From Anaerolineales bacterium (GTDB taxonomy: Bacteria > Chloroflexota > Anaerolineae > Anaerolineales > E44-bin32), in contig SOJU01000252.1 in the NCBI GenBank assembly GCA_004376465.1, positions 1-52,335 on the forward strand: a stretch of DNA of 52,335 nucleotides, written 5' to 3'. This document shows, one piece after another, positions 1-37,097 of the stretch. The notes under the pieces were generated by a model, which was given only the letters and a program-made list of their open reading frames with translations, made no database searches and was not told the DNA's origin. A program made the position numbers and the translations under genes. Each line of letters starts with the position of its first letter. The stretch's first letter is position 1.

Positions 1-1836
1 GTGGGTGACCGGGTTGCTTGCGCGGGCGGCGGTTATGCAGTGCATGCCGAATATGCCGTTGTTCCCCAGAATCTGATCACAAAACTCCCCTCGGGCGTGG
101 ACTTTGAATCGGGCGCCTTCGCCACACTAGGAGCCATCGCCCTTCACGGGTTCAGGCTGGGAGAACCTCAATTAGGTGATCGTGTAGCGATAATCGGTCT
201 CGGGTTATTAGGGCTTTTAGCTGCAAAAATCGCTCAAGCGGCGGGTTGCGCTGTTTTTGGCATCGACACAGATCCCGAGCGGGTGAAAATAGCCGAAGAA
301 CTGGGCATTGAAGCTGTAAACAGAGATGCTGCCGAAACCGAAGGACCGGCGTTCACGGGCGGGGCAGGATTTGACCTGATACAAATTTGCGCCGACACGA
401 CTTCGCATGACACCGTCCAGCTCGCCGGTGTTCTGGCTAGAGATCGGGGAATTGTGGTGGCAACCGGCGCAGTTGGAACCGAGCTGCCGCGAAAACCCTA
501 TTATATGAAGGAGCTACGCTTTGTTATTTCGCGCTCCTATGGCCCTGGTCGCTATGACCCTCTCTACGAAGAGGCCGGCGTGGACTACCCACGCGGGTAT
601 GTGCGTTGGACCGAAGGCCGCAACTTAGAAGCGTTTTTAGAACTCCTCGAAGAAAGCAAAATTGAAACCCAACGGCTGCTCACACACCGCTTCCCTATTG
701 AGCGCGCCATCGAAGCTTACGATTTAATTTCGGACAGTAAGGGAGAGCCGGTTCTCGGAGTCCTGCTGACCTACCCCCAAGAGCAGGCCGAGGTCGTGTC
801 AACGCAGCGTAAGGTGGAATTCAGAGAGCCGGCAATTGAGGCGCAGGATAGCGTTCGCTTGGGCGCAATCGGCGCGGGAAACTTCGCCACCGCCACCATG
901 TTCCCAGCAATGAAAGGTGTGGACGGATTAGAATGGGTCGGGTTGGCGACGGCAACCGGGATGAAAGCAGCGCACGTTGGAAAACGTTTTGGGTTTGCTT
1001 ACGCCACGACGGATGTGGAAGAATTACTGAATGATCAGCGCATCAACACAATCGCCATCCTCACCCGGCACCATCTTCACGCCTCACAAGTAGCGGCCGC
1101 ACTTGAAGCTGATAAGCATGTGTTCTGCGAAAAACCACTCGCGCTCACGAGCAAGGAACTGGAACGGATTGCAGCTGCGTTGCAAACGAAGGACAAGCTG
1201 CTAAGCGTCGGGTTCAATCGCCGATTTGCCCCATTAGCCCTCAAGATGAAGAACTTCTTGGATAAAGCCCGCGAACCACTGGTGATGCACTACCGGGTAA
1301 ACGCCGGGCCTCTACCCTTGGATCATTGGCTTCATGATCCTGCCATGGGTGGAGGGCGTCTTATCGGTGAGGCCTGTCACTTTATCGACTTCTTGACGTT
1401 CCTGACGAATTCCCTCCCGGTGCGAGTGTTCACGCTGGGCCTTCCTGATGACGGAAGATATCGTGAAGATAACTTCGTCATTACGCTCGAGTTCGCGGAT
1501 GGTTCTGTCGGCAGTGTGAGCTACCTGGCGAACGGTGACCGGACACTCCCTAAAGAGCGAATCGAGGTCTTTGGAGGCGGGAGGGTAGCGGTTCTGGATG
1601 ACTTCCAGCAATTGGAGCTGACCCTATCCGGACGCACGAAGACCCACAAATCCCAACTTCGTCAGGATAAAGGTCATCGTGCTGAATGGCATGCCTTCCA
1701 GCAGACGATCACGCAAGGCGGTTCTCCGCCAATCCCCTATGAGCAGATCTTCGCGGTCTCGCTTGCTTCATTTACTGCACTCGATTCGTTGCGTTCCGGT
1801 GAACCACGAGATGTGGGACGGATTGCAGAGCAGTAA
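1..1836 (+). CDS. Bi-domain oxidoreductase (MDR/Zn-alcohol-dehydrogenase-like N-half fused to a Gfo/Idh/MocA C-half); 5' end lies outside the window
   Basis: The ORF is open to the window edge. It has a Rossmann motif AIIGLGLLGLLAAKIA in the N-half. A second NAD(P) fold (LGAIGAGNFA ... VFCEKPLAL) typical of Gfo/Idh/MocA sits in the C-half. This fusion is common in polysaccharide loci. Confidence 0.8.
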   Translation: MGDRVACAGGGYAVHAEYAVVPQNLITKLPSGVDFESGAFATLGAIALHGFRLGEPQLGDRVAIIGLGLLGLLAAKIAQAAGCAVFGIDTDPERVKIAEELGIEAVNRDAAETEGPAFTGGAGFDLIQICADTTSHDTVQLAGVLARDRGIVVATGAVGTELPRKPYYMKELRFVISRSYGPGRYDPLYEEAGVDYPRGYVRWTEGRNLEAFLELLEESKIETQRLLTHRFPIERAIEAYDLISDSKGEPVLGVLLTYPQEQAEVVSTQRKVEFREPAIEAQDSVRLGAIGAGNFATATMFPAMKGVDGLEWVGLATATGMKAAHVGKRFGFAYATTDVEELLNDQRINTIAILTRHHLHASQVAAALEADKHVFCEKPLALTSKELERIAAALQTKDKLLSVGFNRRFAPLALKMKNFLDKAREPLVMHYRVNAGPLPLDHWLHDPAMGGGRLIGEACHFIDFLTFLTNSLPVRVFTLGLPDDGRYREDNFVITLEFADGSVGSVSYLANGDRTLPKERIEVFGGGRVAVLDDFQQLELTLSGRTKTHKSQLRQDKGHRAEWHAFQQTITQGGSPPIPYEQIFAVSLASFTALDSLRSGEPRDVGRIAEQ

Positions 1837-6251: not shown

Positions 6252-6280
6252 GATTTTTGTTCCTGAATATGGGGTTAGGT

Positions 6281-6309: not shown

Positions 6310-6438
6310 GCTTACTCCGTATTTCGAAATGGAGTCGCGAGCCGCCTTTACATAGGGCGGCTCGTGTTTCGTCTGCAGGCAGTGGTATCATTGCGGCGAA
6401 ATACTGGTACTTTTAGTTGCCGGAGGTCCGAGCGCACG

Positions 6439-7362
6439 ATGAGCCGTCCAGATAATGCCGCGTTCTATCGTCGAATGCTGCGAATACGACGTTTTGAAGA
6501 AACCGTACTCGACCTCTTCCCGCGCGGGTTGTTCTACGGCACCACGCATACATATATAGGACAAGAGGCGAATGCGGTTGGAGTGCTCGCCTGGTTGCGC
6601 GAGGGCGATATCGTGGTCAGCAACCATCGCTGTCATGGGCATTTTCTTGCTTATGGCGGTTCGATGCGCTCGTTAGCAGCGGAACTCATGGGGCGCAGCA
6701 CAGGGGTTTGCGGCGGGCGTGGTGGGAGTCAGCACATACAATGGCGGGATTTCTATGCAAATGGGATCCTGGGTGGCACGGTTCCCATGGCGGCAGGGAT
6801 GGCTTCCACGGAAAAACTCAAAGAGGGAGACAAGATGGTTTTCTCCTTCATGGGGGATGGAACGCTGGGTGAAGGTGTCGTTTATGAGACCCTGAATATT
6901 GCCGCACTCGGGGCGTTCCCAATTCTCTTCATTGTTGAAAACAACCGCTATGCTCAAAGCACACCCACTCGATTGAACCTGGCGGGCGAGATCCCCGATC
7001 GCTTCAAGGCTTTCGGTATTCCGGTTGAATCGATTGATTCGACGGATGTGGTTGAGATCCACGAAGCCATTGAGCCCATGCTTAAGTATGTACGTGAGAA
7101 GAATGGCCCTGCGGCATTTGTGGTGCACACGTACCGTTTTGCACCTCACTCCAAAGGCGACGATAGTCGAGATCCAGAGGAGATCGCCCGTTATCGGACA
7201 AAAGACCCACTTCCAATTCAGGCCGAACGATTGGAAGAAGCGAACCAAAGAGAGATTCAGGAATCGGTTGAGATGGAGGTCGCGGACGCCTTCGAACAAG
7301 CCGAATCCGATCCCGCTGCCGAGCCTGCATCACTCACATCTCCGTTGGGAAAAAGCCAATGA
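6439..7362 (+). CDS. Thiamine-diphosphate-dependent 2-oxoacid dehydrogenase E1 component, alpha subunit
   Basis: I trimmed the start to the ATG at 6439, with GGAGG about 11 nt upstream. The ThDP motif GDGTLGEGVVYETLNIAALGAFPILFIVENNRYA (GDG-X-NN) is present. YRFAPHSKGDD corresponds to the YR-x-GHS-x-SD loop. Confidence 0.85.
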   Translation: MSRPDNAAFYRRMLRIRRFEETVLDLFPRGLFYGTTHTYIGQEANAVGVLAWLREGDIVVSNHRCHGHFLAYGGSMRSLAAELMGRSTGVCGGRGGSQHIQWRDFYANGILGGTVPMAAGMASTEKLKEGDKMVFSFMGDGTLGEGVVYETLNIAALGAFPILFIVENNRYAQSTPTRLNLAGEIPDRFKAFGIPVESIDSTDVVEIHEAIEPMLKYVREKNGPAAFVVHTYRFAPHSKGDDSRDPEEIARYRTKDPLPIQAERLEEANQREIQESVEMEVADAFEQAESDPAAEPASLTSPLGKSQ

Positions 7363-8363
7363 CGACCATCCTCGAATCGCTCAATCGGGGCTTGCGAACA
7401 TGCCTGGAGGAATCAGATCGGGTCTATGTGATCGGGGAGGACGTGCTCGATCCGTATGGTGGTGCGTTCAAGGTGACCAGGGGGTTATCCACGGATTACC
7501 CTGAACACGTGATCACCACACCCGTGTCGGAGGCCGGCATCGTTGGTGTTGGGGTTGGTATGGCGCTGCGCGGCCTGTTTCCAGTGATCGAGATCATGTT
7601 CGGCGATTTCATCAGTTTAACGGTTGACCAATTGATTAATCACGCCGCAAAATTCCGGTGGATGAGCAATGACCAGGTGCGGGTGCCACTCGTCGTGCGT
7701 ACGCCTATGGGCGGGCGGCGCGGGTACGGACCAACGCACAGCCAGTCCCTCGAGAAGCACTTGCTCGGCGCACCTGGCTTACGTGTCGTTGCGGCGACAG
7801 CGCTGGGCGATGCGGGAGAATTGCTGCGCAAGGCGGTCTTAGAGGATGAAGACCCTGTATTGTTCCTTGAGCACAAAGTTCTCTATGCAAAACCGATCAT
7901 CGCCCATGATGAACTGTCAGATTTCGAAGTCGATGTAAGCGATGATCCCTATCCAACCTACCGTCTGCGCATTGCCGGTGCCCCGACGCCAGTGATTACG
8001 CTGACAGCCTATGGATATTCAGCAGAACTGGCGCGTGAAGCCGTGAAGCGTCTGGCTTACGAGCATGAGATCTTCAGCGATCTCATCGTCCCTACACATT
8101 TATCCCCCTTTGAACTGAGTGACCTATTCAGTGCGGTGAGACAAACGAAGCGCCTGCTGACCGTTGAGGAGGGTACGATGACGCTTGGTTGGGGTGCGGA
8201 AGTCATCGCCCGAGCCCTCGAAGAACTTGGCGCCGGGCTCCATGCGCAGCGTGTCGCCGCAGGCGACATGCCGATACCCGCTGCCGGGCTGCTGGAAACA
8301 GCCGTACTCCCGCAGGTTGAGGACATTATTGAGGCGGCAGTTGCACTTTCTGAAGCGAACTGA
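7359..8363 (+). CDS. 2-oxoacid dehydrogenase E1 component, beta subunit (transketolase-like Pyr and C-terminal domains)
   Basis: An ATGA overlap joins it to the alpha-subunit gene. Motifs GEDVLDPYGGAFKVTRGL, TPVSEAGIVGVGVGMA and RTPMGGRRGYGPTHSQS are typical of E1 beta. Confidence 0.9.
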   Translation: MTTILESLNRGLRTCLEESDRVYVIGEDVLDPYGGAFKVTRGLSTDYPEHVITTPVSEAGIVGVGVGMALRGLFPVIEIMFGDFISLTVDQLINHAAKFRWMSNDQVRVPLVVRTPMGGRRGYGPTHSQSLEKHLLGAPGLRVVAATALGDAGELLRKAVLEDEDPVLFLEHKVLYAKPIIAHDELSDFEVDVSDDPYPTYRLRIAGAPTPVITLTAYGYSAELAREAVKRLAYEHEIFSDLIVPTHLSPFELSDLFSAVRQTKRLLTVEEGTMTLGWGAEVIARALEELGAGLHAQRVAAGDMPIPAAGLLETAVLPQVEDIIEAAVALSEAN

Positions 8364-22388: not shown

Positions 22389-23615
22389 CTAGATGGTCCA
22401 AAGGGATATGGTTTCGATGTGGAATGTCTGGGGGAACAAGTCGATCGGGGTAATGCTCTCCAGTGAATATCCGCCTGCTCGCAAACGCTTCCCATCACGG
22501 CTGAGCGTGGCGGGATCACACGAGATATAGACGATGCGAGAGGGGGAGCGCTCTAGGAGTGCATCGAGCGCTGCTCTTGACAAGCCGGCGCGCGGTGGGT
22601 CGATGAGCACGGCGTCGGGTTGGGGCTTGATCTGAGGCAGGGCCATGCCGACAGCCCCTTCGTAAAGATCGATTTGTGTGAAATGATCAAGGTTGAAGCT
22701 GAAATCACGACAAGCGTGGGGAGACTCCTCGACTGCCACAACATGGACATCGGATTCTGCAATAGCAGCGCTGAACAAACCTACACCTGAATAAAGGTCG
22801 AAGACGGTTTGTCCGGGTTGGATGGACAGCAGTGTTGTCGCCTGTTGAACGAGTTCCGGGATTGTTTTCGTGTTCACCTGGAAGAACGAAAGAGCGGAGA
22901 CGCGGAATTGATGGTGATCTATTTCAAAATAAAGATGATCTTGACCGGCGAGGATAAAATCCCCGCGGGGGCTGGTCCACACTACGGATGTGGGGGTTTC
23001 GATCGAGATCTCGAGATCCGGAGCATCCGTCCCGTGAATAATGACCATCTGCTCCCCCTCGCCTCCGTTGCGCAGGGAGATGTTTTCCATTGCTCTGGTG
23101 GGGTTGAGGTCAAACTGAGCCCAGAGATCGGTTAGTTCCTGCTCGGGAAGGTGGCACTCCTTGACATGGAACACCCGTTGCTTATCGAAGGTGACGAAGC
23201 CAAGGTCGCCATCCTCGGTGAGGTGGAAACGCATGTTATTCCGGTAATTCCATGGCTCAAGCGAAGCGATGGGTGATCGCAAAGGAGGATCCTCGAACCC
23301 ACCGATCCGTACAAGTTGATCGCGCACGACATCCGCCTTGATCTCCAGTTGAAGCGCATAGGGAATGTGCTGGTAATGGCACCCACCGCAGGTTTGAAAG
23401 TGTGGGCAGCGCGGCTCGATTCGTTGATCTGAGGTTTCGATCCATTTTTCGGGCAACGCTCTAGCCCAATGCTTGTGTTCTTCGACCAGGTGAACGCGCA
23501 CCACTTCCCCGGGGATGGTGAAGGGGACGAAGACCATGCGCCCATCGACATCGCGGCCGAAGGATTCGCCCCCGTATGCGTTGCCGGTTAGTGTGAGTTC
23601 AAGAGTTTCTGACAT
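22389..23615 (-). CDS. 23S rRNA (uracil-C5)-methyltransferase, RumA/RlmD family (TRAM + 4Fe-4S + SAM-MTase)
   Basis: I trimmed the start to the ATG at 23615. It has a TRAM-like N-terminus, the Cys cluster CPHFQTCGGCHYQH, DLYSGVGLFS (SAM motif I), and the C-terminal VYISCDPATLSRD. Confidence 0.85.
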   Translation of the reverse strand: MSETLELTLTGNAYGGESFGRDVDGRMVFVPFTIPGEVVRVHLVEEHKHWARALPEKWIETSDQRIEPRCPHFQTCGGCHYQHIPYALQLEIKADVVRDQLVRIGGFEDPPLRSPIASLEPWNYRNNMRFHLTEDGDLGFVTFDKQRVFHVKECHLPEQELTDLWAQFDLNPTRAMENISLRNGGEGEQMVIIHGTDAPDLEISIETPTSVVWTSPRGDFILAGQDHLYFEIDHHQFRVSALSFFQVNTKTIPELVQQATTLLSIQPGQTVFDLYSGVGLFSAAIAESDVHVVAVEESPHACRDFSFNLDHFTQIDLYEGAVGMALPQIKPQPDAVLIDPPRAGLSRAALDALLERSPSRIVYISCDPATLSRDGKRLRAGGYSLESITPIDLFPQTFHIETISLWTI

Positions 23616-23869
23616 AAGTGCACGTTGGAAGTGTAGCTTGTTCTGGTGGATTCGCGCCAGTATCTCACAAATATCCATGTCGCAATTGACGTCCTTTCAC
23701 AAGGCGCGATGTGGTCATGCCCTAACGAGTGATTGATCGCCCAGGGCCTCGATTCTATGTTTGCAATATGCAAGCGATCCCTGCCCGCAGCGGAACGAAG
23801 GGTTTTATCCCCCTTTTGACGCTAAATTCAATAAAACGTATATAAACCTCAATAATATTAATATAACAC

Positions 23870-23897
23870 TTGACAATTATTAAAAACGTGCTATTTT
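23870..23897 (+). promoter_or_regulatory. Sigma-70-like promoter for the 24.2-28.2 kb operon
   Basis: The sequence is TTGACA-16 nt-TATTTT. About 60 nt of very AT-rich, UP-element-like sequence (AATAATATTAATATAAC) precedes it. Confidence 0.45.
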
Positions 23898-23948
23898 GAA
23901 GCGAGATAATTGAGGATCATTGCTAAAAAATTAAAATGGAGTCCCAAA

Positions 23949-24209
23949 ATGGACAACACATTTTATTTGAAGCTACTCGCTGAAGTGCATCAGAGTTGCT
24001 TATTAGAGGATGGGGGGCAAACGCATCTCCACCCCGGGCAACCGCGCATAGCCTCCCCTGCATTACGAAAAGCGATCGTGACGGGTGGTAGCTTCTTGAT
24101 TCGGACTGGCGAGGCGTTAAAAGGAATTGGAGTGCCCGGTGAAATGTCCCCGTTCTCTTCAAATGGCCCGAGGGCATCGATGGGGAATAACCCATCTGTT
24201 GAAGCCTAG
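23949..24209 (+). CDS. Possible small leader ORF (86 aa), no recognisable family
   Basis: An ATG has GGAG 7 nt upstream. The composition is not obviously protein-like (Gly/Pro/Ser-rich C-terminus). This stretch could instead be a long 5' UTR. Confidence 0.25.
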   Translation: MDNTFYLKLLAEVHQSCLLEDGGQTHLHPGQPRIASPALRKAIVTGGSFLIRTGEALKGIGVPGEMSPFSSNGPRASMGNNPSVEA

Positions 24210-24247
24210 TGGACGGCGAAGGATTTCCACGAAGGAAGTGGTGAGAA

Positions 24248-24622
24248 ATGAATCAAATGCTTACGACCTGCCCGGTCTGTGAGGAACGCCTCTCGATTAC
24301 ACGCTTTCACTGTCGCAACTGCGACACCACGATCGATGGACATTTCGATATTGGCCGCTTCGGGAGATTGAGTGCTGAGCAGATTAACTTTCTTGAAGTC
24401 TTCGTACGCTGCGAGGGAAAGCTAAGTCGAATGGAACCCGAATTGGAGTTGTCGTATCCTACACTCAGGGCACGGTTGACAGAGATCATTCGTTCGTTGG
24501 GCTTCCCGGTAGGACCTGAGACGAAACTGATTAATGATGAGGAGCGGCACAAGATCCTCGACGACCTGGCAAGCGGGAAATTGACTTCTGAGGAGGCCAT
24601 GCAGCTTCTGGAAGTTGACTGA
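24248..24622 (+). CDS. DUF2089-type regulator: N-terminal Zn-ribbon + HTH + C-terminal SHOCT-like bihelix
   Basis: The Zn-ribbon is CPVCEERL...CRNCDTTI. The HTH region is LSAEQINFLEVFVRCEGKLSRMEPELELSYPTLRARL. The C-terminus is ERHKILDDLASGKLTSEEAMQLL. Confidence 0.85.
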   Translation: MNQMLTTCPVCEERLSITRFHCRNCDTTIDGHFDIGRFGRLSAEQINFLEVFVRCEGKLSRMEPELELSYPTLRARLTEIIRSLGFPVGPETKLINDEERHKILDDLASGKLTSEEAMQLLEVD

Positions 24623-24663
24623 ATAGTTGAGGTAGACCTGGTAAGCGGGAGGAGGTTGGCACT

Positions 24664-25779
24664 GTGGAAAAAGTGACACTTGAGATTGGCGAAAGCCCTC
24701 TGGTGAAAATCACGACAATCGGCGGGGATCTGCGTCTTTCGGGGCGGGATGAGCCCATCCTAGAGGCACAGGCGCCGGATAAGGGGAAGCTGCAAGTAGA
24801 TGAGATCGAAGAGGGAGTAGAAATCACTGCGAACTCAGGCTGCATCCTTTTCTTACCGAAAGACGCGCGTCTCGAGGTCGGCGAGGTTGGTGGGGACTGT
24901 AGGGTCACCGATTTGGGAAACGAGTTCATGATTCGTACGATTGGAGGAGATTTGAGCTTACGCAGGGTTGGGGCGGCGACCTTTGAAACGATCGGCGGGG
25001 ATTTTCAGAGCAGGCATATTGAGGGGAATTTAACCGTCGACCGTATTGGCGGGGACGCCGTGATTCACAAAGTCAAGGGTGATATCCATCTGCGAGGAGT
25101 GGGGGGGGACCTGATGCTTAACGATAGCTCTGGCCAGGTGAACGCATTTGTTGGCGGAGATGCTTTAGTCACTCTGGCGACCCCTGAAGGCTCTCACTCA
25201 AAAGTGCAGGCTGGCAGCGACCTTTCCTGCCGGATAGCTCCTGAGTCATCGGTGAACGTGTCCTTATCCGCAGGTGGCGATCTGGATTATCCATTAGTAG
25301 TGGAGTCCAAAGAGCAGGGTGAAGGTGTCGCTTTTCAGCTTGGTGACGGCGAAGCGGAACTAGAGCTTACAGCTGGTGGAGATCTCTGCCTTCAAACGGG
25401 ATTGAGGCAGGATGATTACGAAGACGATTGGGTCGGAGAGATACTAACCGAGGTAGACGCGAAGCTGGCAGAAGTGGAGGCGCGCTTCAATGTTATGGGC
25501 ACGGGGATGTACGGCTTCGATGCAGATCGAATTGGTGAGCGCGTCCGCCGTGCGGTTCGACGTGCAGAGCGCAGGGCAAGCGGAAAGGCAAAACGCAAAG
25601 CGGCGAAGGAAAAGAGGAAGACGGGCTCGTCTTTCTCATGGAAAGCGCCTGGATTCGGTGACGCCGTAGAACCTGCGACCGATGAGGAACGTTTAACGAT
25701 CCTGCGCATGGTTGAAGAAGGCAAGGTTTCGGTCTCAGAAGCCGAAGCTTTACTCAAGGTCCTGGAGGGAGAATCTTGA
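24664..25779 (+). CDS. DUF4097 'toastrack' beta-helix repeat protein (LiaX/YvlB-like) with basic linker and C-terminal SHOCT-like bihelix
   Basis: The GTG start has GGGAGGAGG 8 nt upstream. About 11 repeats of the x-GGD-x type (TIGGDLRLSG, VGGDCRV, TIGGDLSL, RIGGDAVI, VGGDLML, AGGDLDY...) are present. A K/R-rich stretch spans residues 292-320. The C-terminus is ERLTILRMVEEGKVSVSEAEALLKVL. Confidence 0.85.
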   Translation: MEKVTLEIGESPLVKITTIGGDLRLSGRDEPILEAQAPDKGKLQVDEIEEGVEITANSGCILFLPKDARLEVGEVGGDCRVTDLGNEFMIRTIGGDLSLRRVGAATFETIGGDFQSRHIEGNLTVDRIGGDAVIHKVKGDIHLRGVGGDLMLNDSSGQVNAFVGGDALVTLATPEGSHSKVQAGSDLSCRIAPESSVNVSLSAGGDLDYPLVVESKEQGEGVAFQLGDGEAELELTAGGDLCLQTGLRQDDYEDDWVGEILTEVDAKLAEVEARFNVMGTGMYGFDADRIGERVRRAVRRAERRASGKAKRKAAKEKRKTGSSFSWKAPGFGDAVEPATDEERLTILRMVEEGKVSVSEAEALLKVLEGES

Positions 25780-26759
25780 CCGCTGCCGTCGCCTCGGCCA
25801 AACCGTTTGCACACTGTGGCATCCGACCCGTAGAACCGCGCCACGATATGGCCGCACTAGCCGGGTTGATCGAACAAGCATTTTCAGAGCGATTAGATGC
25901 CTCCGGGCGGCGGATGATCTTGGGTATGAAGATGTTTGCACGGGCGGGGAGCCTCGGCTGGTTTTTGGGCCGTTGGTTTTTACCCCCAGCTGCCTACCCT
26001 CAGGGATATGTTTGGGAAGAGGATGGCGAGGTGGTAGGTAATGCAAGCCTGCTTCCCGTGAGTGGATACCAGCAACGCTGGGTAATGGCTAACGTCGTGG
26101 TCAAGCCGGAATATCAGCGCCAGGGCATTGCGCGGGAACTGATCCTGGCTTCGATCGAGCATGCACGACGCAGTGGGGGCAAGCGGATCATATTGCAGGT
26201 TGATCGTGATAATCAGGGAGCAAGGACTCTGTATGAGAACCTCAAGTTTAAGACTCTCTCAACGCGAACTACGTGGTTAAGAAAAGAGAACGGAGAATGG
26301 CCGCACGCTGATACTCAGGATCAGGTTCGACCTCGGACAAGCGGCGAATGGCGCGGGCATTGGGCGTTGGCAAAACGGCTGCACCCTGAAGGGTTATTAT
26401 GGCCTTTCCCTGCAGTTGCGAGCCTGTTTCGACCATCAGGATTTGAGAATCTGTTCGGATTGGGGAAACCCAAGCACTGGGTATGGCAAGAAGCCGGGAG
26501 ACTCGCCGGTGCGGTAAGCATCAGGTCTGAGTTAGAGCGCCGTCTATTGCGCTTGATGATGGTTGTGGAACCTGAATGGCGCGAAGATATCGAAAGCGGT
26601 CTTCTTTGTGAAGCGATGCAGGAATCGGCGGCGTTAGCTGACAACTTCATCCTGGATTATCCGTCTGACGTCGCCCGGGAAAAAATTGAAAGACTGGGCT
26701 TTAAGGCCATTCGCGAGCTCACATGGATGGGAATGAACCTCGAGGAAAACGAAACTTGA
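25776..26759 (+). CDS. GNAT-family N-acetyltransferase, two-lobed (GNAT + second degenerate GNAT-like half)
   Basis: The TTG start overlaps the upstream TGA (CTTGA), with GGAGGGAG upstream. The first half has motif A (VVVKPEYQRQGIARELILASIEHARRSG) and then TLYENLKFK. The second 150 aa ends in ERLGFKAIRE, which is typical of a GNAT beta-strand/helix terminus. Confidence 0.85.
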   Translation: MTAAVASAKPFAHCGIRPVEPRHDMAALAGLIEQAFSERLDASGRRMILGMKMFARAGSLGWFLGRWFLPPAAYPQGYVWEEDGEVVGNASLLPVSGYQQRWVMANVVVKPEYQRQGIARELILASIEHARRSGGKRIILQVDRDNQGARTLYENLKFKTLSTRTTWLRKENGEWPHADTQDQVRPRTSGEWRGHWALAKRLHPEGLLWPFPAVASLFRPSGFENLFGLGKPKHWVWQEAGRLAGAVSIRSELERRLLRLMMVVEPEWREDIESGLLCEAMQESAALADNFILDYPSDVAREKIERLGFKAIRELTWMGMNLEENET

Positions 26760-26792
26760 AGGATCCATGAGCTTTAATGGTGGAGATTCGCA

Positions 26793-27344
26793 ATGAATGA
26801 CGATCAAAACAGTATGGAGATACTCGATCAGCTTGATGCTGGTCAGATTGATGCCAGTGAAGCCGTCCGCCGGCTTTCAGAGAAGGGCGTACAACCCAAG
26901 CAGCAGGCTGAAGTTCCCAGCCTTCCCAACCGCTGGCGATATTGGTGGACGATCCCACTCTCCATTGGGTTCGCAATGTGTGTTACGGGGTGGGGCCTGA
27001 GCCAGCTAGGTGGCTGGTGGTGGATCTGCGCAGGACCTTTACTGGTGCTTGGAGCCGTCGTTATGATCTTGTCCGCAGCCACGTATAAGTCTCCCTGGGT
27101 CCATGTACGAGTAAAAACTGGAGAAGATAAATGGCCACGCACGATTGCGATCAGCTTGCCGCTTCCTCTTGGTCTCACCGCACGCATTCTAAGATGGCGA
27201 GGTTTGTCCTTTGGCGGGTTAGACGCAACCACGATCGACGATCTGATACTTGCGCTCCAAGCAAATCTGTCAGCCGGCGAACCGATTTATATTGAAGTTG
27301 ATGAGGGTGAGTCGGGAGAACAAGTAAAAATTATCTTGGGTTAG
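26793..27344 (+). CDS. Membrane protein: N-terminal SHOCT-like bihelix, two TM helices, C-terminal domain paralogous to the next ORF
   Basis: The SD is GGTGGAG. The N-terminus is MEILDQLDAGQIDASEAVRRLSEKG. The TM segments are WWTIPLSIGFAMCVTGWGL and WWWICAGPLLVLGAVVMILSAA. The C-terminus runs WVHVRVK...IAISLPLPLGL...IYIEVDEGESGEQVKIIL. Confidence 0.75.
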   Translation: MNDDQNSMEILDQLDAGQIDASEAVRRLSEKGVQPKQQAEVPSLPNRWRYWWTIPLSIGFAMCVTGWGLSQLGGWWWICAGPLLVLGAVVMILSAATYKSPWVHVRVKTGEDKWPRTIAISLPLPLGLTARILRWRGLSFGGLDATTIDDLILALQANLSAGEPIYIEVDEGESGEQVKIILG

Positions 27345-27361
27345 ACAAGGAGACATATGAG

Positions 27362-27733
27362 ATGTCATCAAAAGAGCGATTAAAAATTCTAAAGATGATC
27401 GACGAAGGAAAGATTACGGCAGAAGAAGGCACGCAATTACTTGGGGCCTTAAAGAAACAGGAGAAGCACAGGAGCGGTTCCACTGAAGGTGGAGCGCAGT
27501 GGTTGCGAATTCGAGTCAGTGACCTGAACTCTGGGAAAGAAACAGTTCGGGTTAGCCTCCCGATAGGTCTGGTTAATATCGGTATGAAGATGGGGGCTCG
27601 CTTTGTCCCGGAAATTGAGGAAGAGGCCGTTATGGAGGATCTGGCCGAAGCGCTATCTCAGGGGATGGCTGGAAAAATCATCGATATCGTGGATGAAGAA
27701 GATGGTGAACGTGTCGAGATATTTATCGAGTAA
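27362..27733 (+). CDS. Soluble protein: N-terminal SHOCT-like bihelix (YvlB/LiaX N-terminal type) + domain paralogous to the C-terminus of the previous ORF
   Basis: The SD AAGGAGA lies 8 nt upstream. The N-terminus is ERLKILKMIDEGKITAEEGTQLLGAL. The C-terminus runs WLRIRVS...VRVSLPIGLVNIG...IIDIVDEEDGERVEIFI. Confidence 0.8.
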   Translation: MSSKERLKILKMIDEGKITAEEGTQLLGALKKQEKHRSGSTEGGAQWLRIRVSDLNSGKETVRVSLPIGLVNIGMKMGARFVPEIEEEAVMEDLAEALSQGMAGKIIDIVDEEDGERVEIFIE

Positions 27734-27834
27734 GCAACATCATCTCGACCCAACCTCCTTTGCCTTCGAGATGAATCCGAGCTCAGATCAGCGGGGGAAG
27801 GCAGTCATGGTAAGATTCCCATGAGAGGGTAGTA

Positions 27835-28221
27835 GTGAAAAACTTTGGATTGCGTCTGGCGATTAACGCCCTTGCACTTTACCTCGCTGTGGGCACCGGC
27901 TGGATCCCTTACATACACGCAGAGAACACACAGTGGTGGGCATATTTCGTCATGGCCTTGATCTTCGCAGTTGTCAACGCGGTGCTTGGGCCTCTGCTGA
28001 AGCTGTTGACCTGTCCGTTGATATTTCTTACGCTGGGATTATTCACGCTGGTCATCAACACATTGCTTTTCTACGTGACGGGATGGCTTGGAAGCTTAAT
28101 CGGCAGTGGCTTCGGCTTCGAAATCGAAAAAGTCTGGGCGGGTTTTCTGGGCGCGTTGCTGGTCGGGATCGTCAATACTGTCCTCACGCTGGTTTTCCGG
28201 AGGGAGCTCAAAACAGCGTAA
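27835..28221 (+). CDS. DUF360 / phage-holin-superfamily-IV-like small membrane protein (YvlD-like)
   Basis: It is 128 aa with four TM segments. The N-terminal LRLAINALALYLAV is typical of DUF360. It has a GTG start. Confidence 0.8.
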   Translation: MKNFGLRLAINALALYLAVGTGWIPYIHAENTQWWAYFVMALIFAVVNAVLGPLLKLLTCPLIFLTLGLFTLVINTLLFYVTGWLGSLIGSGFGFEIEKVWAGFLGALLVGIVNTVLTLVFRRELKTA

Positions 28222-28258
28222 CCCCAAATTCGTCAATCAAGAACAAATCATTTATTGC

Positions 28259-28284
28259 ACGCAGCCTTGATGGCGCGTTTTTTA
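28259..28284 (+). terminator. Intrinsic terminator closing the 24.2-28.2 kb operon
   Basis: ACGCAGCC-TTGAT-GGCGCGT forms a 7-bp stem with one bulged A. It runs into a tract of 7 T. Confidence 0.6.
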
Positions 28285-28413
28285 TATAAATGACTGCACA
28301 CTCATGCGATTAAATCGCTCGGTATGGCTTGAATAGAATTTGCCCTCATCACGCTTTGACAGTTCCACTGTGGTAATCGGAACTTATGTAATGTAGTTTC
28401 AAGCCAGAATGCT

Positions 28414-29595
28414 ATGCTATACTCAAAAAACATGAGTGACCTGACGAGTTTGGAATGCCCTGAATGCGGGGAGCTTTTTAATCATGAGCAGCTTCAAACC
28501 ATATGTACCAAATGTGATTCGCCGCTGCTCTGCCACTACGATTTGGCGGATTACGCCGATAGCTTAGACAAAGAGCAGATCTCAAGCCGTCCTCGAGGCC
28601 TGTGGCGCTGGCATGAACTGCTTCCGGTACATAACCATGATTTTTGTCTAACGCTGGGGGAAGGCGATACAGCCCTTATACCTGTGCCTCGGATCGCAGC
28701 TGAATTGGGAATCGAATCGGTCTTCGTTAAAGACGAAGGGGGCAACCCCACCGGCACTTTTAAAGCTCGAGGGCTTGCAGTTGCAGTCTCGCGAGCCAAA
28801 GAACTCGGAGCTAAAACGCTCTCGATCCCGACCGCTGGCAACGCAGGAGGCGCTTTGGCTGCGTATGCCGCACGCGCTGAGATGGAAGCGCATGTCTTTA
28901 TGCCCGCGGATGCGCCTCTTGTGTATCAGATCGAGGTTGCTGTGCACGGCGGAGAATTGGTCCTTGTTGATGGTTTGATCGATGAAGCGGGTAGGCAGGC
29001 AGCACTGCAAACCGAGGCGAACGGTTGGTTTGGTATCTCGACTTTCAAGGAACCCTACCGCGTTGAGGGTAAAAAAACGATGGGGTTTGAGTTGGCGGAA
29101 GCCTTCAATTGGGAACTACCTGAAGTCATTATTTATCCCACAGGCGGTGGTACGGGGTTGGTTGGGATGTGGAAGGCATTTTCTGAGATGGAGGCGATGG
29201 GCTGGATCGGTGCGGATAGACCACGGATGGTGTGTGTCCAACCTGAAGGCTGCGCACCTGTCGTGAAATCGCTCGAGAAAGGAGAGCCGCGTATCACACC
29301 ATGGGAAAATGCAGCGACGACAGCCCATGGGATACGGGTTCCTCAAGTCTACGCCGATCGATTGGTTCTGAGCGCAATTCGTGAAAGCGGCGGCACAGGA
29401 ATTGCTGTAACTGATGATGAATTCATTCAAGCTCAAGCCGAATTGGCTCAGAAGGAAGGTATTCATACCTGCTTAGAAGGGGCAGCTACACTGGCTGGTT
29501 TACGCCGGATGGCCGCCGCCGGGGAAGTGGATCCTGGCGATCAGGTTGTCCTTTTCAATACCGGCACCGGATTGAAACAAATGAGTGTGATGTGA
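28414..29595 (+). CDS. thrC: Threonine synthase (short form with N-terminal Zn-ribbon)
   Basis: The Zn-ribbon is CPECGELF...CTKCDSPL. The PLP lysine motif is NPTGTFKARG. A glycine loop YPTGGGTGLVG is present. Confidence 0.9.
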   Translation: MLYSKNMSDLTSLECPECGELFNHEQLQTICTKCDSPLLCHYDLADYADSLDKEQISSRPRGLWRWHELLPVHNHDFCLTLGEGDTALIPVPRIAAELGIESVFVKDEGGNPTGTFKARGLAVAVSRAKELGAKTLSIPTAGNAGGALAAYAARAEMEAHVFMPADAPLVYQIEVAVHGGELVLVDGLIDEAGRQAALQTEANGWFGISTFKEPYRVEGKKTMGFELAEAFNWELPEVIIYPTGGGTGLVGMWKAFSEMEAMGWIGADRPRMVCVQPEGCAPVVKSLEKGEPRITPWENAATTAHGIRVPQVYADRLVLSAIRESGGTGIAVTDDEFIQAQAELAQKEGIHTCLEGAATLAGLRRMAAAGEVDPGDQVVLFNTGTGLKQMSVM

Positions 29596-34882: not shown

Positions 34883-35034
34883 GCTTTTTCTTATCTTCCC
34901 CCTAAATCCCCCAATGCCCCCTCCGCGCTGGTTCGGGGGTGCACGCGAGGTGATTGTGGGGGACTTATCATCCCGAGCTTGTCGAGGGACCACTCCCCTG
35001 GCAAAGCGCTCAGAGCGAAGCGTGGAGCACACCC
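34883..35034 (+). repeat. Intergenic dispersed repeat, copy A (forward on + strand)
   Basis: Hand alignment against the reverse complement of 49289-49440 gives 11 substitutions and 2 single-nt indels over about 152 nt. A 45-nt core is identical (34955-34999). Confidence 0.85.
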
Positions 35035-35319
35035 TCTGACAACGATCGATTCGGCTTGACGTTTCAAAAGGGCGTCTCTAAGGAATATTTGGCAGTGCTC
35101 AGGGGATATGCATTGTGATTGGTCCCACATTAGTTAGGGGAGTCGGTTGCATAATGGCGGTGGACTGACACACTGGCAGGCTCACACCGTACCGCGCTGG
35201 TTACTGTGCGGTGTAACCTGAAGGTCCTCAGTTTCCCACGCGGAGTTTATCCTGCGAAGTCACCGACCAACGAGAGTGGGGAGTTTATCGAAGGGCTCTG
35301 GACATGCGAATCCGTAAGG

Positions 35320-36618
35320 CTAGGGAGATAGAGCAGACAACAGCCATTCATAAAGCGGCACAACTTCCACCGTAGTGCCCTCTATGGTAATGGTTTCTTT
35401 GTCCGCCAGATTGACAATTTGAAGCCGGTTTTGTTCTTTCTTTTCTTCGGAGAGTTCTACTAAAGAGCGAAGCTCTCGCAGCCTGGTTTTCTCATTGCTT
35501 AGGTCCTGACTGACCTGGATTGCGAGTTGTTCAGATGGAACGAAAAAGTCGACCTCATGATTTTGTTTTGTTTTGTAATAGAAGATATCCTGGTGATGTC
35601 TCCGTAACTGAAGAAAAACAAGATTTTCCATTAATTTCCCAATATTCTTTGAAAATGAGAATCCAACTGAGTTCAGCATGCCTGTATCAATGCCAAATAT
35701 TTTTTTTGCTGCTATTTGTTGTTCTTTGACTGAATAGGCATACTTGTTGATTGTAAAGAACAGCCAGGCATTTTCCAAGTAACTGATATATTTCTTGACT
35801 GTGTTGACGCTGCCCAGTTTGAGGTTGGTCTTTAGTTTGTTAAAAGAGATTTCAGAAGCGGGGTTGCTGATTAGATAGAAGGCCAGTTCCTGGAGGCTTT
35901 TTACATTGTCAATTCTGTAAAGGGCTGCGATATCCCTGTAGAGCACATCGTCATACAGGGTTTTGAGAATATCCAATTGAGGATACTTTAACGCATCAGG
36001 TATGCCTCCATTAACTAGATACTCTCTGGAATGCTTCAGTAAGGCCCCTCTTTCGCTGGTGGTTAGGGTTGGTGTTTTTGGCAATTCAACTCTATGAAAC
36101 TTAATATATTCTGTGAATGAGAAAGGAAATAGCTCATAGCGGAGAGATCTACCGGTTAGCTTTGTACCCAGTTCCTGACTTAAGAAAGATGAGTTGGATC
36201 CTGTGATGATGAACTGGTATCCGTGATCGTGTAGCCGGCGGACAAATCGTTCCCATTCTGGTACATTTTGAATCTCATCAAACAGAAATATTTTTCTTTC
36301 ACCAAACAGACCGATTAAAGCTTCGTGAAGATGGTCAAACTGATCTGCTGTAAAACTCAGGAGGCGTTCATCCTCAAAGTTCACGAAATAAAAGTTATCA
36401 GACAGTTGAGTTTGGGCGATTTGGGCCAGCAGGGTAGATTTGCCGACTCTCCGGAGACCGGTGATGACTATTATTTTGGGTGTTGCCAAGCCCGTAGTAA
36501 TCTCTGGGAGGATTTCCCGCGGAGTTCCTAAATCAACATTGGAAAAGGTTTCGTATTGTTGCCTGAGAACGGAACTTAATCGTTCTAACGGGAGATTGTG
36601 GGGTGGTTGATTGCTCAT
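35320..36618 (-). CDS. AAA+ ATPase with C-terminal DUF4143 domain (AAA_14 family)
   Basis: Walker A is ITGLRRVGKSTLL and Walker B is IFLFDEIQ. The C-terminal HEVDFFV resembles the DUF4143 nuclease-fold-like region. By eye the gene is clearly more AT-rich than its neighbours. Confidence 0.85.
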   Translation of the reverse strand: MSNQPPHNLPLERLSSVLRQQYETFSNVDLGTPREILPEITTGLATPKIIVITGLRRVGKSTLLAQIAQTQLSDNFYFVNFEDERLLSFTADQFDHLHEALIGLFGERKIFLFDEIQNVPEWERFVRRLHDHGYQFIITGSNSSFLSQELGTKLTGRSLRYELFPFSFTEYIKFHRVELPKTPTLTTSERGALLKHSREYLVNGGIPDALKYPQLDILKTLYDDVLYRDIAALYRIDNVKSLQELAFYLISNPASEISFNKLKTNLKLGSVNTVKKYISYLENAWLFFTINKYAYSVKEQQIAAKKIFGIDTGMLNSVGFSFSKNIGKLMENLVFLQLRRHHQDIFYYKTKQNHEVDFFVPSEQLAIQVSQDLSNEKTRLRELRSLVELSEEKKEQNRLQIVNLADKETITIEGTTVEVVPLYEWLLSALSP

Positions 36619-36642
36619 GATACTTGAATTCTAGCCGAAAAA

Positions 36643-36699
36643 GTTTTCACTGTCAATGAAAACATTTAGACAATAGTTTTCACTGGGAGTGAAAACTAT
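36643..36699. promoter_or_regulatory. Two palindromes sharing the half-site GTTTTCA(C), upstream of the AAA/DUF4143 gene
   Basis: The first is GTTTTCA-7 nt-TGAAAAC (36643-36663). The second is ATAGTTTTCAC-5 nt-GTGAAAACTAT (36673-36699, a perfect 11-bp arm). Their centres are about 33 bp apart, 25-80 bp upstream of the ATG at 36618. Confidence 0.4.
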
Positions 36700-37097
36700 C
36701 TGTTCGGAGTCAGTTATAAAAATTAGTGTAAGGTGTAAAAACTATATCCGTACTGAATTCATGTGCACCCTCACTTTCCAATCTGATCTCCTCTACGCCT
36801 TGTCTATTCACTACTTTTACATTCAACTCGCAAGCATAATACATAATGATGAAGGCGAGGTTAGTAGCGTTCCTGACCTATACCCAGACTGCACATGCCA
36901 GGTCTACTCTCCGCGTGTAGGATAATTGAAACCTAATGCTCGCTGGGTTCCGAGCAGTTGAAAATCGCAAGGCTACCCTTGGGACACCAGCCTAACGGTC
37001 CAAGATCCCCCTTTCAGGGTTCCAACTCATAATATTAACTAGAGCGTCTACTGTATTGCCGATTACCTTATTTGGTGAAGGGTCTCACTGCTGGGGT

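Follow-up and report, generated by a model that had tools for sequence, protein, structure and literature searches.

A conserved, probably membrane-sensing operon of Chloroflexota built around a DUF2089-family regulator

Introduction

The window analysed here, a 52,335-nucleotide stretch of DNA from an uncultured Anaerolineales bacterium (Chloroflexota), contains a block of same-strand genes that raises two questions: whether the block forms a single unit, and what such a unit might do. We find that it is a genuine conserved operon that probably comprises seven genes, g0 to g6, rather than the six of the initial annotation, and that its probable role is to monitor the condition of the membrane. 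Our literature search found no experimental description of this operon or its parts, consistent with the initial view of the gene combination as undescribed. The comparative genomics study of Ravi et al. 2024 (mSystems, PMC11237479), which contains no other type of data, had nevertheless described DUF2089 proteins as zinc ribbon, HTH and SHOCT-like domains linked to Toastrack contexts, listed a dyad of DUF2089 and SHOCT-like+X genes in Bacillus, and predicted a role for SHOCT-like domains and Toastrack in assembling signalling complexes beneath the membrane.

Results

Operon layout and regulatory signals

Each of the six plus-strand ORFs g1 to g6 is preceded by a purine-rich Shine-Dalgarno (SD) sequence, the junctions between them measure 41, −4, 33, 17 and 101 nt in order, and the block is bracketed by a promoter and an intrinsic terminator that are both conserved in related species (Table 1). 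These short or overlapping junctions, the SD sequence of each gene, the 4-nt g2/g3 overlap (retained among relatives) and the two conserved signals argue for one unit. The six same-strand ORFs, their SD sequences and junctions agree with the initial annotation; its single unit stands, and its six-gene set proves to be a lineage-specific version that overlooked g0.

Table 1. Features of the operon and its flanking signals in the window.
Feature	Position	Strand	Evidence
Tract of 84% A+T preceding the −35 hexamer, with the candidate operator inside	23826..23868	+	sequence, composition
Candidate operator, palindrome TCAATA-A-TATTAA	23849..23861	.	motif search, cross-locus comparison
σ70-type promoter, TTGACA-16-TATTTT, TG extended −10	23870..23897	+	consensus scan, conservation
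g0, 86 aa, no named family, motif G..LI..GEAL, SD GGAG (probable gene)	23949..24209	+	gene callers, conservation
g1, DUF2089-family regulator	24248..24622	+	Pfam PF22747 48.4 bits, PF09862 67.5 bits, PF22746 28.8 bits
g2, soluble Toastrack protein	24664..25779	+	SHOCT-like Pfam match, orthologue profile
g3, tandem GNAT acetyltransferase, 327 aa	25776..26759	+	Pfam Acetyltransf_1, AF2 model, Foldseek
g4, membrane protein	26793..27344	+	locus-derived SHOCT-like profile, hydrophobic segments, X5 profile
g5, soluble SHOCT-like + X protein	27362..27733	+	Pfam SHOCT-like E 2.8e-9; AF2 model
g6, DUF360 / YvlD-type four-helix membrane protein	27835..28221	+	PF04020, 84.2 bits
Intrinsic terminator, stem CGC(A)GCC / GGCGCG, loop TTGAT, T6	28259..28284	+	MFE structure, conservation

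The promoter behind its A+T-rich tract, as first annotated, was seen in our scan. Its −35 and −10 hexamers are invariant and its spacer is variable in four related species (L003, L012, L014, L015), and a TTGAC[AT]-16..18-TAnnnT site lies upstream of the operon in 44/64 loci. The stem and T-run of the terminator, also in the initial annotation, are kept in six relatives (L003, L004, L012–L015), the stem by compensatory changes. Taken alone, the promoter consensus scan is not significant (4 promoter-like sites versus 4.8 expected); the terminator escaped its consensus scan and has a fold z-score of only −1.1. It is conservation that marks both signals as more than chance.

The candidate operator is the sole TYAATANTATTRA match (≤1 mismatch) in the window, and in L003, L012, L014, L019, L030 and L044 the element likewise sits at this position of the promoter. 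In 41 non-redundant loci a position-specific consensus, TtAATAATATTAAT, is located at −21 to −7 from the −35 hexamer. The promoter regions contain 68 copies of the pentamer ATTGA/TCAAT, compared with 18.2 ± 4.2 in shuffles, and in many diverged loci the promoter is flanked by the palindrome and by ATTGA half-sites. The element may bind the DUF2089 HTH protein; being A+T-rich, it could instead act as an UP element or be bound by some other factor.

The g0 ORF fills the 350-nt gap between the promoter and g1 and is probably the first gene of the operon. It was called by gene callers in L001–L003, and comparison with three other species shows an ORF length free of indels and an excess at the third codon position (34 versus 20 and 20). 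Similar small ORFs take the first position in many loci, Roseiflexus included; hhalign between two small-ORF groups gave only P = 8.8e-5 at 60% probability, and the ORF is lost in L015.

Four proteins with a shared handle

Pfam matches were counted above curated cut-offs. All three models (Zn_ribbon_DUF2089, DUF2089-HTH and SHOCT-like) pass in g1, which comprises a CxxC...CxxC zinc ribbon, an HTH and a C-terminal SHOCT-like handle, as expected of the DUF2089 regulator initially annotated. The profile searches suggested at that stage also place Acetyltransf_1 and DUF360 above their cut-offs, but g2 itself falls below the Pfam DUF4097 (Toastrack) threshold. The Toastrack assignment holds at the family level, as PF13349 (DUF4097) is matched by 12/25 g2 orthologues and a profile built from g2 orthologues matches Pfam-verified DUF4097 proteins (E = 9.5e-9 and 6.9e-5). 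In g2, ten G[GSA]D motif matches span residues 20–238, the middle region is helical and basic, no TM segment was detected, and a C-terminal SHOCT-like handle covers residues 341–370 (Pfam, E = 1.8e-7). Within the window the SHOCT-like profile matches exactly g1, g2, g4 and g5, whose SHOCT-like segments align gap-free, giving substance to the shared bihelical handles proposed earlier. As for a role of SHOCT in oligomerisation, an early experiment gave it no support (PMC3581485).

In g4, a weak N-terminal SHOCT-like handle (E = 8.2e-6 with a locus-derived profile; Pfam only 0.053) is followed by a two-helix hydrophobic hairpin (~residues 51–96), also present in orthologues, and a C-terminal domain, X, that matches the X5 profile (E = 1.6e-23). 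The X domain of g5 is modelled as beta-beta-alpha-alpha-beta-beta (AF2, pLDDT 74), and a Foldseek search of the g5 model against the PDB returned no match below E = 0.1. Among 54 diverse members of the g5 family (1438 clusters at 50% identity) no domain was found besides SHOCT-like, and X has no Pfam counterpart. BLASTP alone barely relates g4 to g5 (E = 0.59); hhalign of disjoint family alignments (99.3% probability, E = 2.7e-20) confirms at the profile level that they are paralogues sharing the X domain, the membrane/soluble pair of the initial annotation. X is a previously undescribed domain carried by two proteins of the operon.

A conserved core with variable cargo

We surveyed species loci anchored on g5, ~70 of which had enough upstream DNA. 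The order DUF2089, Toastrack+SHOCT-like, membrane X, soluble SHOCT-like+X recurs in 68 other Chloroflexota species. DUF2089 is found in 68 of the ~70 loci, with a Toastrack gene also upstream in 66 of those 68, and both are absent from L072 and L089. As the loci are all from Chloroflexota and many are syntenic, this conservation is partly inherited rather than selected. The linkage spans Anaerolineales, Promineifilaceae, Ardenticatenaceae, Thermoflexales, Herpetosiphon and Roseiflexus, where flanking genes are unrelated. Bacillota plasmids also carry DUF2089 followed by SHOCT-like+X and X genes, and Niallia and Paraclostridium carry the DUF2089 and SHOCT-like+X dyad, with an X domain homologous to that of the operon. 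The gene order suggested at first is therefore kept in its core and not fixed as a set of six; the core comprises DUF2089, Toastrack+SHOCT-like and the two X-domain proteins, probably led by g0.

The remaining genes are variable cargo. The GNAT gene is present in 38/69 loci, MFS genes in 35/69, and DUF360 in 23/69, only among loci that also have GNAT; ABC-2 exporter genes occur in Promineifilaceae-type loci. This operon has neither ABC-2 exporter nor MFS genes, the latter being present in most relatives. In the closest relatives (L003, L004, L012, L013) a ~400 bp deletion cleanly removes the DUF360 gene. Given this loss and its limited distribution, DUF360 is unlikely to be an essential output, contrary to the initial suggestion. 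That g6 closes the operon as a DUF360 gene is borne out by its above-cut-off PF04020 match, while its "holin-like" label is nominal, as g6 has no PHROG match and no phage context.

The two-lobed GNAT initially annotated is confirmed at the fold level for g3. Acetyltransf_1 matches residues 76–158 (E = 3e-21), the acetyl-CoA motif Q114-R-Q-G-I-A119 lies in the N lobe and the C lobe is degenerate. The AF2 model (pLDDT 87, pTM 0.84) matches the tandem GNATs VipF, MAB_4324, 2wpw and MshD over ~330 columns (Foldseek, E = 1e-16 to 1e-11).

Discussion

Our best reading, with a probability of about 0.55, is an autoregulated, membrane-associated, one-component-like signalling module with cargo, related to Psp/Lia-type envelope-stress systems. 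Its core consists of the DUF2089 transcription factor, the soluble Toastrack scaffold with its terminal handle, the membrane-hairpin protein, with handle and X domain both predicted on the cytoplasmic face, and the soluble paralogue of the latter. Through putative protein contacts and membrane docking, the SHOCT-like handles of all four, together with the surfaces of Toastrack, would assemble these proteins beneath the membrane. In a purely conjectural step, whether the transcription factor is held or free would depend on membrane state or on that of a membrane-active compound, and the freed factor would bind the palindromic operator at the promoter of its own operon. The response genes borne by the operon would be those for DUF360 and the tandem GNAT acetyltransferase, joined in relatives by MFS/ABC-2 exporters. 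The link to envelope stress is drawn by analogy, since no PspA, PspC, LiaF or LiaS partner lies nearby; the initial annotation had noted the lack of the last three, and we find none within ~10 kb in either direction.

The Toastrack, SHOCT-like and X proteins might instead be effectors rather than sensors, a membrane-protective machinery that forms a PspA/LiaH-like scaffold at damaged membrane, with DUF2089 as an ordinary autoregulator answering an unrelated cue. The core proteins have no enzymatic motifs, and the Toastrack protein YvlB of B. subtilis interacts with PspA, LiaH and Yvl membrane proteins and is proposed to act at damage sites (PMC9239133). We nonetheless consider this unlikely, because the transcription factor bears the same handle as the other three proteins, which argues that it is part of the complex, and because its association with an X protein persists in Bacillota without any Toastrack gene. 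It is rather improbable that the operon is a resistance or detoxification cassette in which GNAT and an exporter acetylate and export a toxic compound or metabolite under ligand-specific regulators: 31/69 loci that keep the core lack GNAT, the window has no exporter, and the Bacillota and Roseiflexus versions have no adjacent GNAT or exporter gene. Such a pathway would fit the closest sequence relatives of g3 (RimI/N-alpha-acetyltransferases and MshD), the MFS genes after GNAT in most Anaerolineales relatives, the ABC-2 exporter genes before GNAT in Promineifilaceae-type loci, and L092, where the core has decayed and the GNAT and DUF360 genes alone are intact.

GNAT toxins and HTH antitoxins exist and PF04020 is named a phage holin family, yet a toxin-antitoxin or anti-phage defence cassette or a phage lysis remnant, with GNAT as toxin, the HTH protein as antitoxin and DUF360 as holin, is scarcely credible. 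The seven proteins have no significant PADLOC match (the sole one listed is g1 to LmuB, E = 0.0068, 12.8 bits), the six tested (g0, g1, g2, g4, g5, g6) have no PHROG match, the chromosomal neighbourhood is conserved, the GNAT is a tandem enzyme of 327 aa, and the operon can dispense with both the GNAT and the DUF360 gene. Equally remote is the notion of no functional unit at all, with gene order as synteny inherited among close relatives and promoter and terminator as chance matches. It agrees with the chance-level consensus scans and with flanking genes (among them TRAM methyltransferase, PALP and GAF kinase) common to many Anaerolineales loci, but it is already largely refuted by several tests: the core is retained where flanks wholly differ and, in part, in a second phylum, there are overlapping stop and start codons, compensatory changes preserve the terminator stem, and promoter hexamers are conserved while the spacer varies.

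Read as a signalling module, the operon shares with the contexts of Ravi et al. 2024 its transcription-factor architecture, the Toastrack association and the fact that several of the partners bear SHOCT-like domains. In the four genes of their context, a sigma factor and a zf-HC2 anti-sigma receptor accompany Toastrack proteins anchored in the membrane. Here no sigma/anti-sigma pair lies within ~10 kb on either side and Toastrack is soluble; the operon has instead X-domain proteins as a membrane/soluble pair, a small gene at its head, the tandem GNAT and DUF360. Toastrack with SHOCT-like domain(s) and DUF360 (YvlD) also share one operon in B. subtilis yvlABCD and Listeria lmo2487-2484, which are induced by envelope stress or bacteriocin (PMC12791056, PMC9239133), in agreement with the co-occurrence noted initially. 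Unlike these, our operon has no PspC-domain protein, would be regulated by the DUF2089 factor that it encodes and not by sigma-W, and carries its SHOCT-like domain C-terminal rather than N-terminal to Toastrack; DUF360 is dispensable in its lineage. Enterococcal LiaX, which modulates a stress regulator, likewise combines an N-terminal helical domain (YvlB/LiaX N-terminal, SHOCT-like) with a C-terminal Toastrack-type domain (PMC6936494), and a Roseiflexus castenholzii member of the g5 family (~38% identical to g5) is named "YvlB/LiaX N-terminal domain-containing protein" in UniRef. The operon lacks LiaF and LiaS/LiaR, and LiaX acts partly outside the cell, whereas the operon proteins are all predicted to lie in the cytoplasm or on the cytoplasmic side of the membrane. 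The Psp system of E. coli (PspA-PspF with PspBC) follows a similar logic, a partner holding the regulator and releasing it when membrane proteins sense damage, by analogy only, as no protein is homologous.

For g3, the two-lobed fold of VipF, MshD, MAB_4324 and the clavulanic-acid tandem GNAT extends over the full protein, at sequence identities of only 10–16%. The catalytic lobe of MshD is C-terminal, and the acetyl-CoA motif of g3 is in the N lobe.

Operon layout and regulatory signals

The initial annotation had proposed a six-gene operon at 23870-28284, and its six plus-strand ORFs (g1 to g6) were found exactly where it placed them, with successive junctions of 41, −4, 33, 17 and 101 nt. 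That operon is confirmed with three amendments: a probable seventh gene, g0, lies in the leader, the Toastrack gene is identified at family level only, and the GNAT and DUF360 genes are separable cargo.

Features of the operon on the contig, part of a metagenome-assembled genome of Anaerolineales (Chloroflexota) (nt positions in the window)
Feature	Position	Strand	Description
Promoter	23870-23897	+	TTGACA-16-TATTTT, TG extended −10; upstream tract 84% A+T
g0 (small ORF)	23949-24209	+	86-aa ORF, SD GGAG, fills leader
g1 (DUF2089)	24248-24622	+	ORF, 124 aa, purine-rich SD
g2 (Toastrack, family level)	24664-25779	+	ORF, 371 aa, purine-rich SD
g3 (GNAT)	25776-26759	+	ORF, 327 aa, purine-rich SD
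g4 (membrane X)	26793-27344	+	ORF, 183 aa, purine-rich SD
g5 (soluble SHOCT-like+X)	27362-27733	+	ORF, 123 aa, purine-rich SD
g6 (DUF360)	27835-28221	+	ORF, 128 aa, purine-rich SD
Terminator	28259-28284	+	bulged hairpin CGC(A)GCC-TTGAT-GGCGCG, then T6, at 28260-28283; from sequence and fold

Taken alone, the promoter and terminator signals are at chance level: a consensus scan of the window returned 4 promoter-like sites against 4.8 expected, the same scan did not call the terminator, and the terminator fold has a z-score of only −1.1. Comparison with relatives supports both. The two promoter hexamers are invariant in an alignment of four related species in which the spacer varies, and a TTGAC[AT]-16..18-TAnnnT site is positioned upstream of the operon in 44 of 64 surveyed loci. 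In six relatives, compensatory substitutions preserve the terminator stem, and the T-run is kept with it. The 101-nt spacer between g5 and g6 also contains an 8-bp inverted repeat with a 17-nt loop (CATCTCGA, 27741-27748; TCGAGATG, 27766-27773) and no T-run after it. Partly kept in close relatives, including those in which DUF360 is deleted, this repeat may be an RNA processing or stability element.

The promoter is separated from g1 by 350 nt. A search of 23600-28450 against Rfam (E ≤ 1) gave no match, so this stretch is no known riboswitch or leader RNA, and an inverted-repeat search of the leader found one weak pair only. The leader is better explained by g0, which gene callers predict in near-identical contigs. 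Across three other species, at nucleotide divergence of up to ~28%, its length is free of indels and its substitutions are in excess at third codon positions (34, versus 20 and 20 at the other two). In many diverged loci, as in Roseiflexus, the first position of the operon is taken by a small ORF of similar layout that has a G..LI..GEAL / WLG motif. Against this conservation, hhalign supports homology between the distant groups only modestly (P 8.8e-5, 60% probability), the g0 of the window was not recovered by an iterative HMM that started from L019, and the ORF is lost in one close relative (L015). We therefore denote g0 as a probable, dispensable first gene. The direct repeat AAAATGGA (23933-23940 and 23946-23953, 13 nt apart) spans the g0 SD and start codon; it is kept in three related loci (L003, L012 and L014) and degenerate in L015.

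A motif comparison of 41 non-redundant promoters, aligned on their hexamers, revealed the consensus TtAATAATATTAAT (a TYAATA-N-TATTRA palindrome) directly 5′ of the −35 hexamer and a second consensus, AgAt.aTTaAA, 7-17 nt past the −10 hexamer. These regions contain 68 copies of the pentamer ATTGA/TCAAT, compared with 18.2 ± 4.2 in shuffles. The palindrome of the window, TCAATAATATTAA (23849-23861), is the sole match in 52 kb. Because the operons have no DNA-binding protein in common other than DUF2089, the simplest reading of the aligned promoters is that the palindrome is a candidate operator for DUF2089 autoregulation; alternatively, it may be a UP element or the site of another factor.

Domain composition of the operon proteins

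In agreement with the call of g1 as a DUF2089 regulator, a Pfam profile search matched all three models of the family above their gathering scores (PF22747, 48.4 bits versus 27.6; PF09862, 67.5 versus 33.4; PF22746, 28.8 versus 27). The protein contains a four-Cys zinc ribbon (CPVC...CRNC visible), an HTH and a C-terminal SHOCT-like domain.

The call of g2 as a toastrack (DUF4097) protein held in part. The protein itself does not match PF13349 (DUF4097) at E ≤ 0.1; its only Toastrack-related match, to NCBIfam LiaG, scores 18.6 bits where the cut-off is 285, and its only Pfam match is SHOCT-like (residues 341-370). However, PF13349 matches 12 of 25 full-length g2 orthologues (best E 3.6e-9), and a profile of orthologues over g2 residues 1-250 matches Pfam-verified DUF4097 proteins (9.5e-9 and 6.9e-5). 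Ten G[GSA]D matches, consistent with G-G-D beta-helix turns, lie over residues 20-238, those in residues 76-204 being spaced 17-20 residues, and no hydrophobic segment was found. As the orthologues and their profile match DUF4097 while g2 itself does not, sequence homology confirms g2 as Toastrack at the family level only.

A SHOCT-like profile run across the whole window matches exactly g1, g2, g4 and g5, whose SHOCT-like segments (here called handles) align without gaps. An early test gave no support for SHOCT oligomerisation (PMC3581485).

Both g4 and g5 contain an N-terminal handle and a C-terminal domain of ~80 aa, denoted X. The two had been described as a membrane/soluble paralogue pair, which BLASTP does not detect (E 0.59), so that profile-profile comparison was needed; hhalign of their disjoint family alignments establishes the relationship (99.3% probability, E 2.7e-20, 79 columns). 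In g4 and its orthologues, two hydrophobic segments ~30 residues apart, with basic residues at both flanks, fit a predicted hairpin that would leave handle and X in the cytoplasm. The X domain is predicted to be beta-beta-alpha-alpha-beta-beta (g5 model, pLDDT 74), and Foldseek of this model against the PDB found no fold match (best E 0.17). No Pfam family was found for g4, and Pfam searches of 54 diverse members of the g5 family, which comprises 1438 clusters at 50% identity, matched SHOCT-like only. Run against sequences from the PDB, the g5-family profile matched nothing but de novo designed TIM barrels, none of them over a passing stretch, and we take these as compositional noise. Two proteins of the representative library (P0241 and P0362) are composite, one joining a g4-like and a g5-like segment (273 aa) and the other a GNAT C-terminus and a g5-like segment (200 aa). 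As fusions or read-throughs these fit the gene adjacency, and they may be gene-calling artefacts.

The N lobe of g3 is a canonical GNAT with the acetyl-CoA motif Q114-R-Q-G117-I-A119, in which G117 is invariant. Its AF2 model (pLDDT 87, pTM 0.84) aligns by Foldseek over the full length (~330 columns) with VipF, MAB_4324, the clavulanic-acid tandem GNAT and MshD (E 1e-16 to 1e-11). The model thus predicts two GNAT folds in one chain, consistent with the two-lobed GNAT of the initial annotation. The DUF360 assignment of g6 is likewise upheld (PF04020, 84.2 bits).

Conservation of a core with variable cargo

We surveyed one genome per species, anchoring on g5 (query, the close g5 alignment A2) and annotating with window-derived profiles, and obtained 80 loci, all in Chloroflexota. 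As the A2 search returned this phylum only, the survey is silent on other phyla, which were partly covered by tblastn of plasmids. Where the upstream DNA sufficed (~70 loci), DUF2089 is present in 68, and in 66 of these a Toastrack gene lies upstream as well; two (L072, L089) have neither. Within the 69 DUF2089 loci, window included, we count Toastrack in 67, an X-domain protein in 64, a tandem GNAT in 38, MFS in 35 and DUF360 in 23. The order DUF2089, Toastrack+SHOCT-like, membrane X, SHOCT-like+X recurs in taxonomic orders with unrelated flanks, and hence is not mere synteny. Neighbourhood conservation across Chloroflexota, the check proposed for the six-gene order, therefore holds for this core; the idea of a fixed six-gene set is contradicted by the frequencies of GNAT (38/69) and DUF360 (23/69).

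In most Anaerolineales relatives, GNAT and g4 are separated by one or two MFS genes that the window lacks, and Promineifilaceae/Ardenticatenaceae loci have an extra Toastrack gene, an extra SHOCT-like+X gene right after DUF2089 and an ABC-2 exporter before GNAT. In five loci (L055, L069, L073, L078 and L079; e.g. L055 2206-10378) the upstream Toastrack gene encodes 240 aa, and an ABC_tran gene, two ABC2_membrane genes and a 140-aa ORF precede GNAT. Roseiflexus castenholzii has a minimal form consisting of a small ORF, DUF2089, SHOCT-like+X and a 667-aa Toastrack+SHOCT-like protein. DUF360 is confined to GNAT loci (23/38 versus 0/31; Fisher 1.4e-8, uncorrected for phylogeny); 46 of 69 related loci lack it, and in the closest relatives a ~400-bp deletion removes it. 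In L092, a frameshifted DUF2089 pseudogene (5511-5874) accompanies an intact tandem GNAT and DUF360 (6001-7483), and g2, g4 and g5 are lacking. Based on this variable presence, the DUF360 deletion and the loss of the core in L092, GNAT, exporters and DUF360 behave as separable cargo. L092 is also a natural "core-less" variant in the same chromosomal slot.

Plasmids of two Bacillota, Paraclostridium bifermentans and Niallia taxi, encode DUF2089 followed by SHOCT-like+X and a short ORF, which in Paraclostridium matches the X profile of g5; no Toastrack gene stands alongside either triad. In Legionella, a DUF2089 gene was found with other partners, so that DUF2089 genes also occur outside this system. 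We considered as partners the GAF-HisKA kinase and the response regulator that flank the operon and rejected them, since they are syntenic in Anaerolineales only and not kept outside that order.

The Paraclostridium plasmid (L095) also encodes a 280-aa GNAT (2619-3461) in which two stretches match Acetyltransf_1 and which the window-derived g3 profile matches too (E 2.1e-14). This gene shares the strand of the triad and lies ~1.5 kb upstream of it, with two small opposite-strand and two same-strand genes between. Its placement may be fortuitous or a distant reflection of the link with GNAT.

Relation to known systems and interpretation

Toastrack and DUF360 co-occur in yvlABCD and lmo2487-84, with envelope-stress and bacteriocin responses (PMC12791056, PMC9239133). 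The operon resembles the yvlABCD-type Psp-like operon in its Toastrack+SHOCT-like protein, although the SHOCT-like domain of g2 is C-terminal, and in its DUF360 (YvlD) protein, g6; it differs in having no PspC-domain membrane protein, none being found among precomputed Pfam matches of genes within ~10 kb either side. LiaX-LiaFSR has LiaF (DUF2154) and the LiaS/LiaR pair, whereas none of these three lies within ~10 kb either side of our operon, nor is a PspA partner nearby. In the proposal of Ravi et al. (2024), sub-membrane signalling complexes are built from Toastrack and SHOCT-like domains (PMC11237479). Their four-gene context has a sigma factor, a zf-HC2 anti-sigma receptor and a membrane-anchored Toastrack; here no sigma or zf-HC2 gene is found in the neighbourhood, and g2 lacks a hydrophobic segment. 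On gene content, the locus falls outside the yvlABCD, LiaX-LiaFSR and sigma/anti-sigma/Toastrack/DUF2089 types. It does resemble the dyad of DUF2089 and SHOCT-like+X listed by Ravi et al. (Table S4), as g1 and g5 share one operon; the dyad is directly adjacent in L009, L041, L045, L055, Roseiflexus (L093), Niallia and Paraclostridium. Our literature search found no experimental work on the mechanism of any DUF2089 protein, such genes being listed in bacteriocin clusters and one transcriptome. To this computationally predicted kind the locus adds X, which defines a partner family spanning two phyla, together with a membrane/soluble pair of paralogues, a small gene in the leader, a candidate operator and the division into core and cargo.

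The locus is a real, conserved, uncharacterised module within known categories. The sequence comparisons establish its parts, their conservation and the regulatory signals; by analogy with Psp/Lia-type systems, these most likely belong to a sub-membrane sensing module. The four handle-bearing proteins would form an assembly beneath the membrane, for which Toastrack would be the platform and g4 the anchor, and the state of the membrane or a membrane-active compound would decide whether the DUF2089 factor is free. Once freed, the factor would act on its own promoter, and the operon would supply response genes that differ between lineages (acetyltransferase, exporters, DUF360). From the initial annotation, which had suggested a membrane-integrity sensing circuit, the conserved unit and the domain calls are retained and the fixed gene set is not; membrane sensing is carried by analogy.

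Rival readings weigh the same parts differently. That there is no unit at all would suit the signals of the window by themselves, and the recurring core argues against it. Less probably than the sensing module, the core proteins are effectors, or the locus is a small-molecule acetylation/export cassette, for which GNAT and exporters speak and to which their patchy occurrence is set opposite. A toxin-antitoxin, defence or lysis role draws on g6 as a phage holin (superfamily IV), which the Pfam family name alone suggests: g6 has no PHROG match and no phage genes among those within ~10 kb either side. PADLOC, run on all seven proteins, and PHROGs, run on g0, g1, g2, g4, g5 and g6, gave no meaningful match, and the GNAT is a 327-aa tandem enzyme absent from many loci; we reject these readings.

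A bolder form of the sensing module seems unlikely to us: that X is a new cross-phylum family of dedicated DUF2089 co-regulators and the operon a new type of partner switch, whose transcription factor would partition between membrane and DNA by the physical state of the membrane, the four proteins docking through identical handles on the inner leaflet or on Toastrack with no kinase, sigma factor or PspA. Within it, we speculate that the tandem GNAT might tune the device by acetylating the handles at the Lys conserved in their G-K-(I/V/L) turn.

Toastrack, SHOCT-like and DUF2089 domains occur widely in the envelope-stress loci of bacteria, and a mechanism has been demonstrated for none. This operon is a compact, kinase-free and sigma-free version in which one small handle is common to the regulator and all of its presumed partners, and its X domain travels with the DUF2089 regulator across two phyla. 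Parts suited to experiment are the candidate operator, the paralogue pair, the three- to four-gene form in cultured R. castenholzii and the two- to three-gene form on the Niallia and Paraclostridium plasmids. If correct, the sensing model would explain the working of SHOCT-like handles and reveal how membrane state can be read directly by a transcription factor; if wrong, an uncharacterised but conserved operon has still been documented in a major lineage of uncultured bacteria.

Additional observations on the contigs

One locus deposited as "Methanosarcinales archaeon" (L012, JAIWHF010000009.1) encodes a g5 homologue 98% identical to that of the window, in the same gene order and with the same flanks. 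As every other relative belongs to Chloroflexota, it is most likely a mis-binned Anaerolineales contig. In the window, G+C falls to 0.43-0.45 over 35001-37000, compared with ~0.53 elsewhere. Based on Pfam matches on an identical contig (L001), this dip covers a minus-strand AAA_14/DUF4143 ATPase gene (~35320-36618), adjoined by a minus-strand AAA_15/AAA_23 (SMC_N-like) ATPase gene from ~37098, and it may mark an acquired island.
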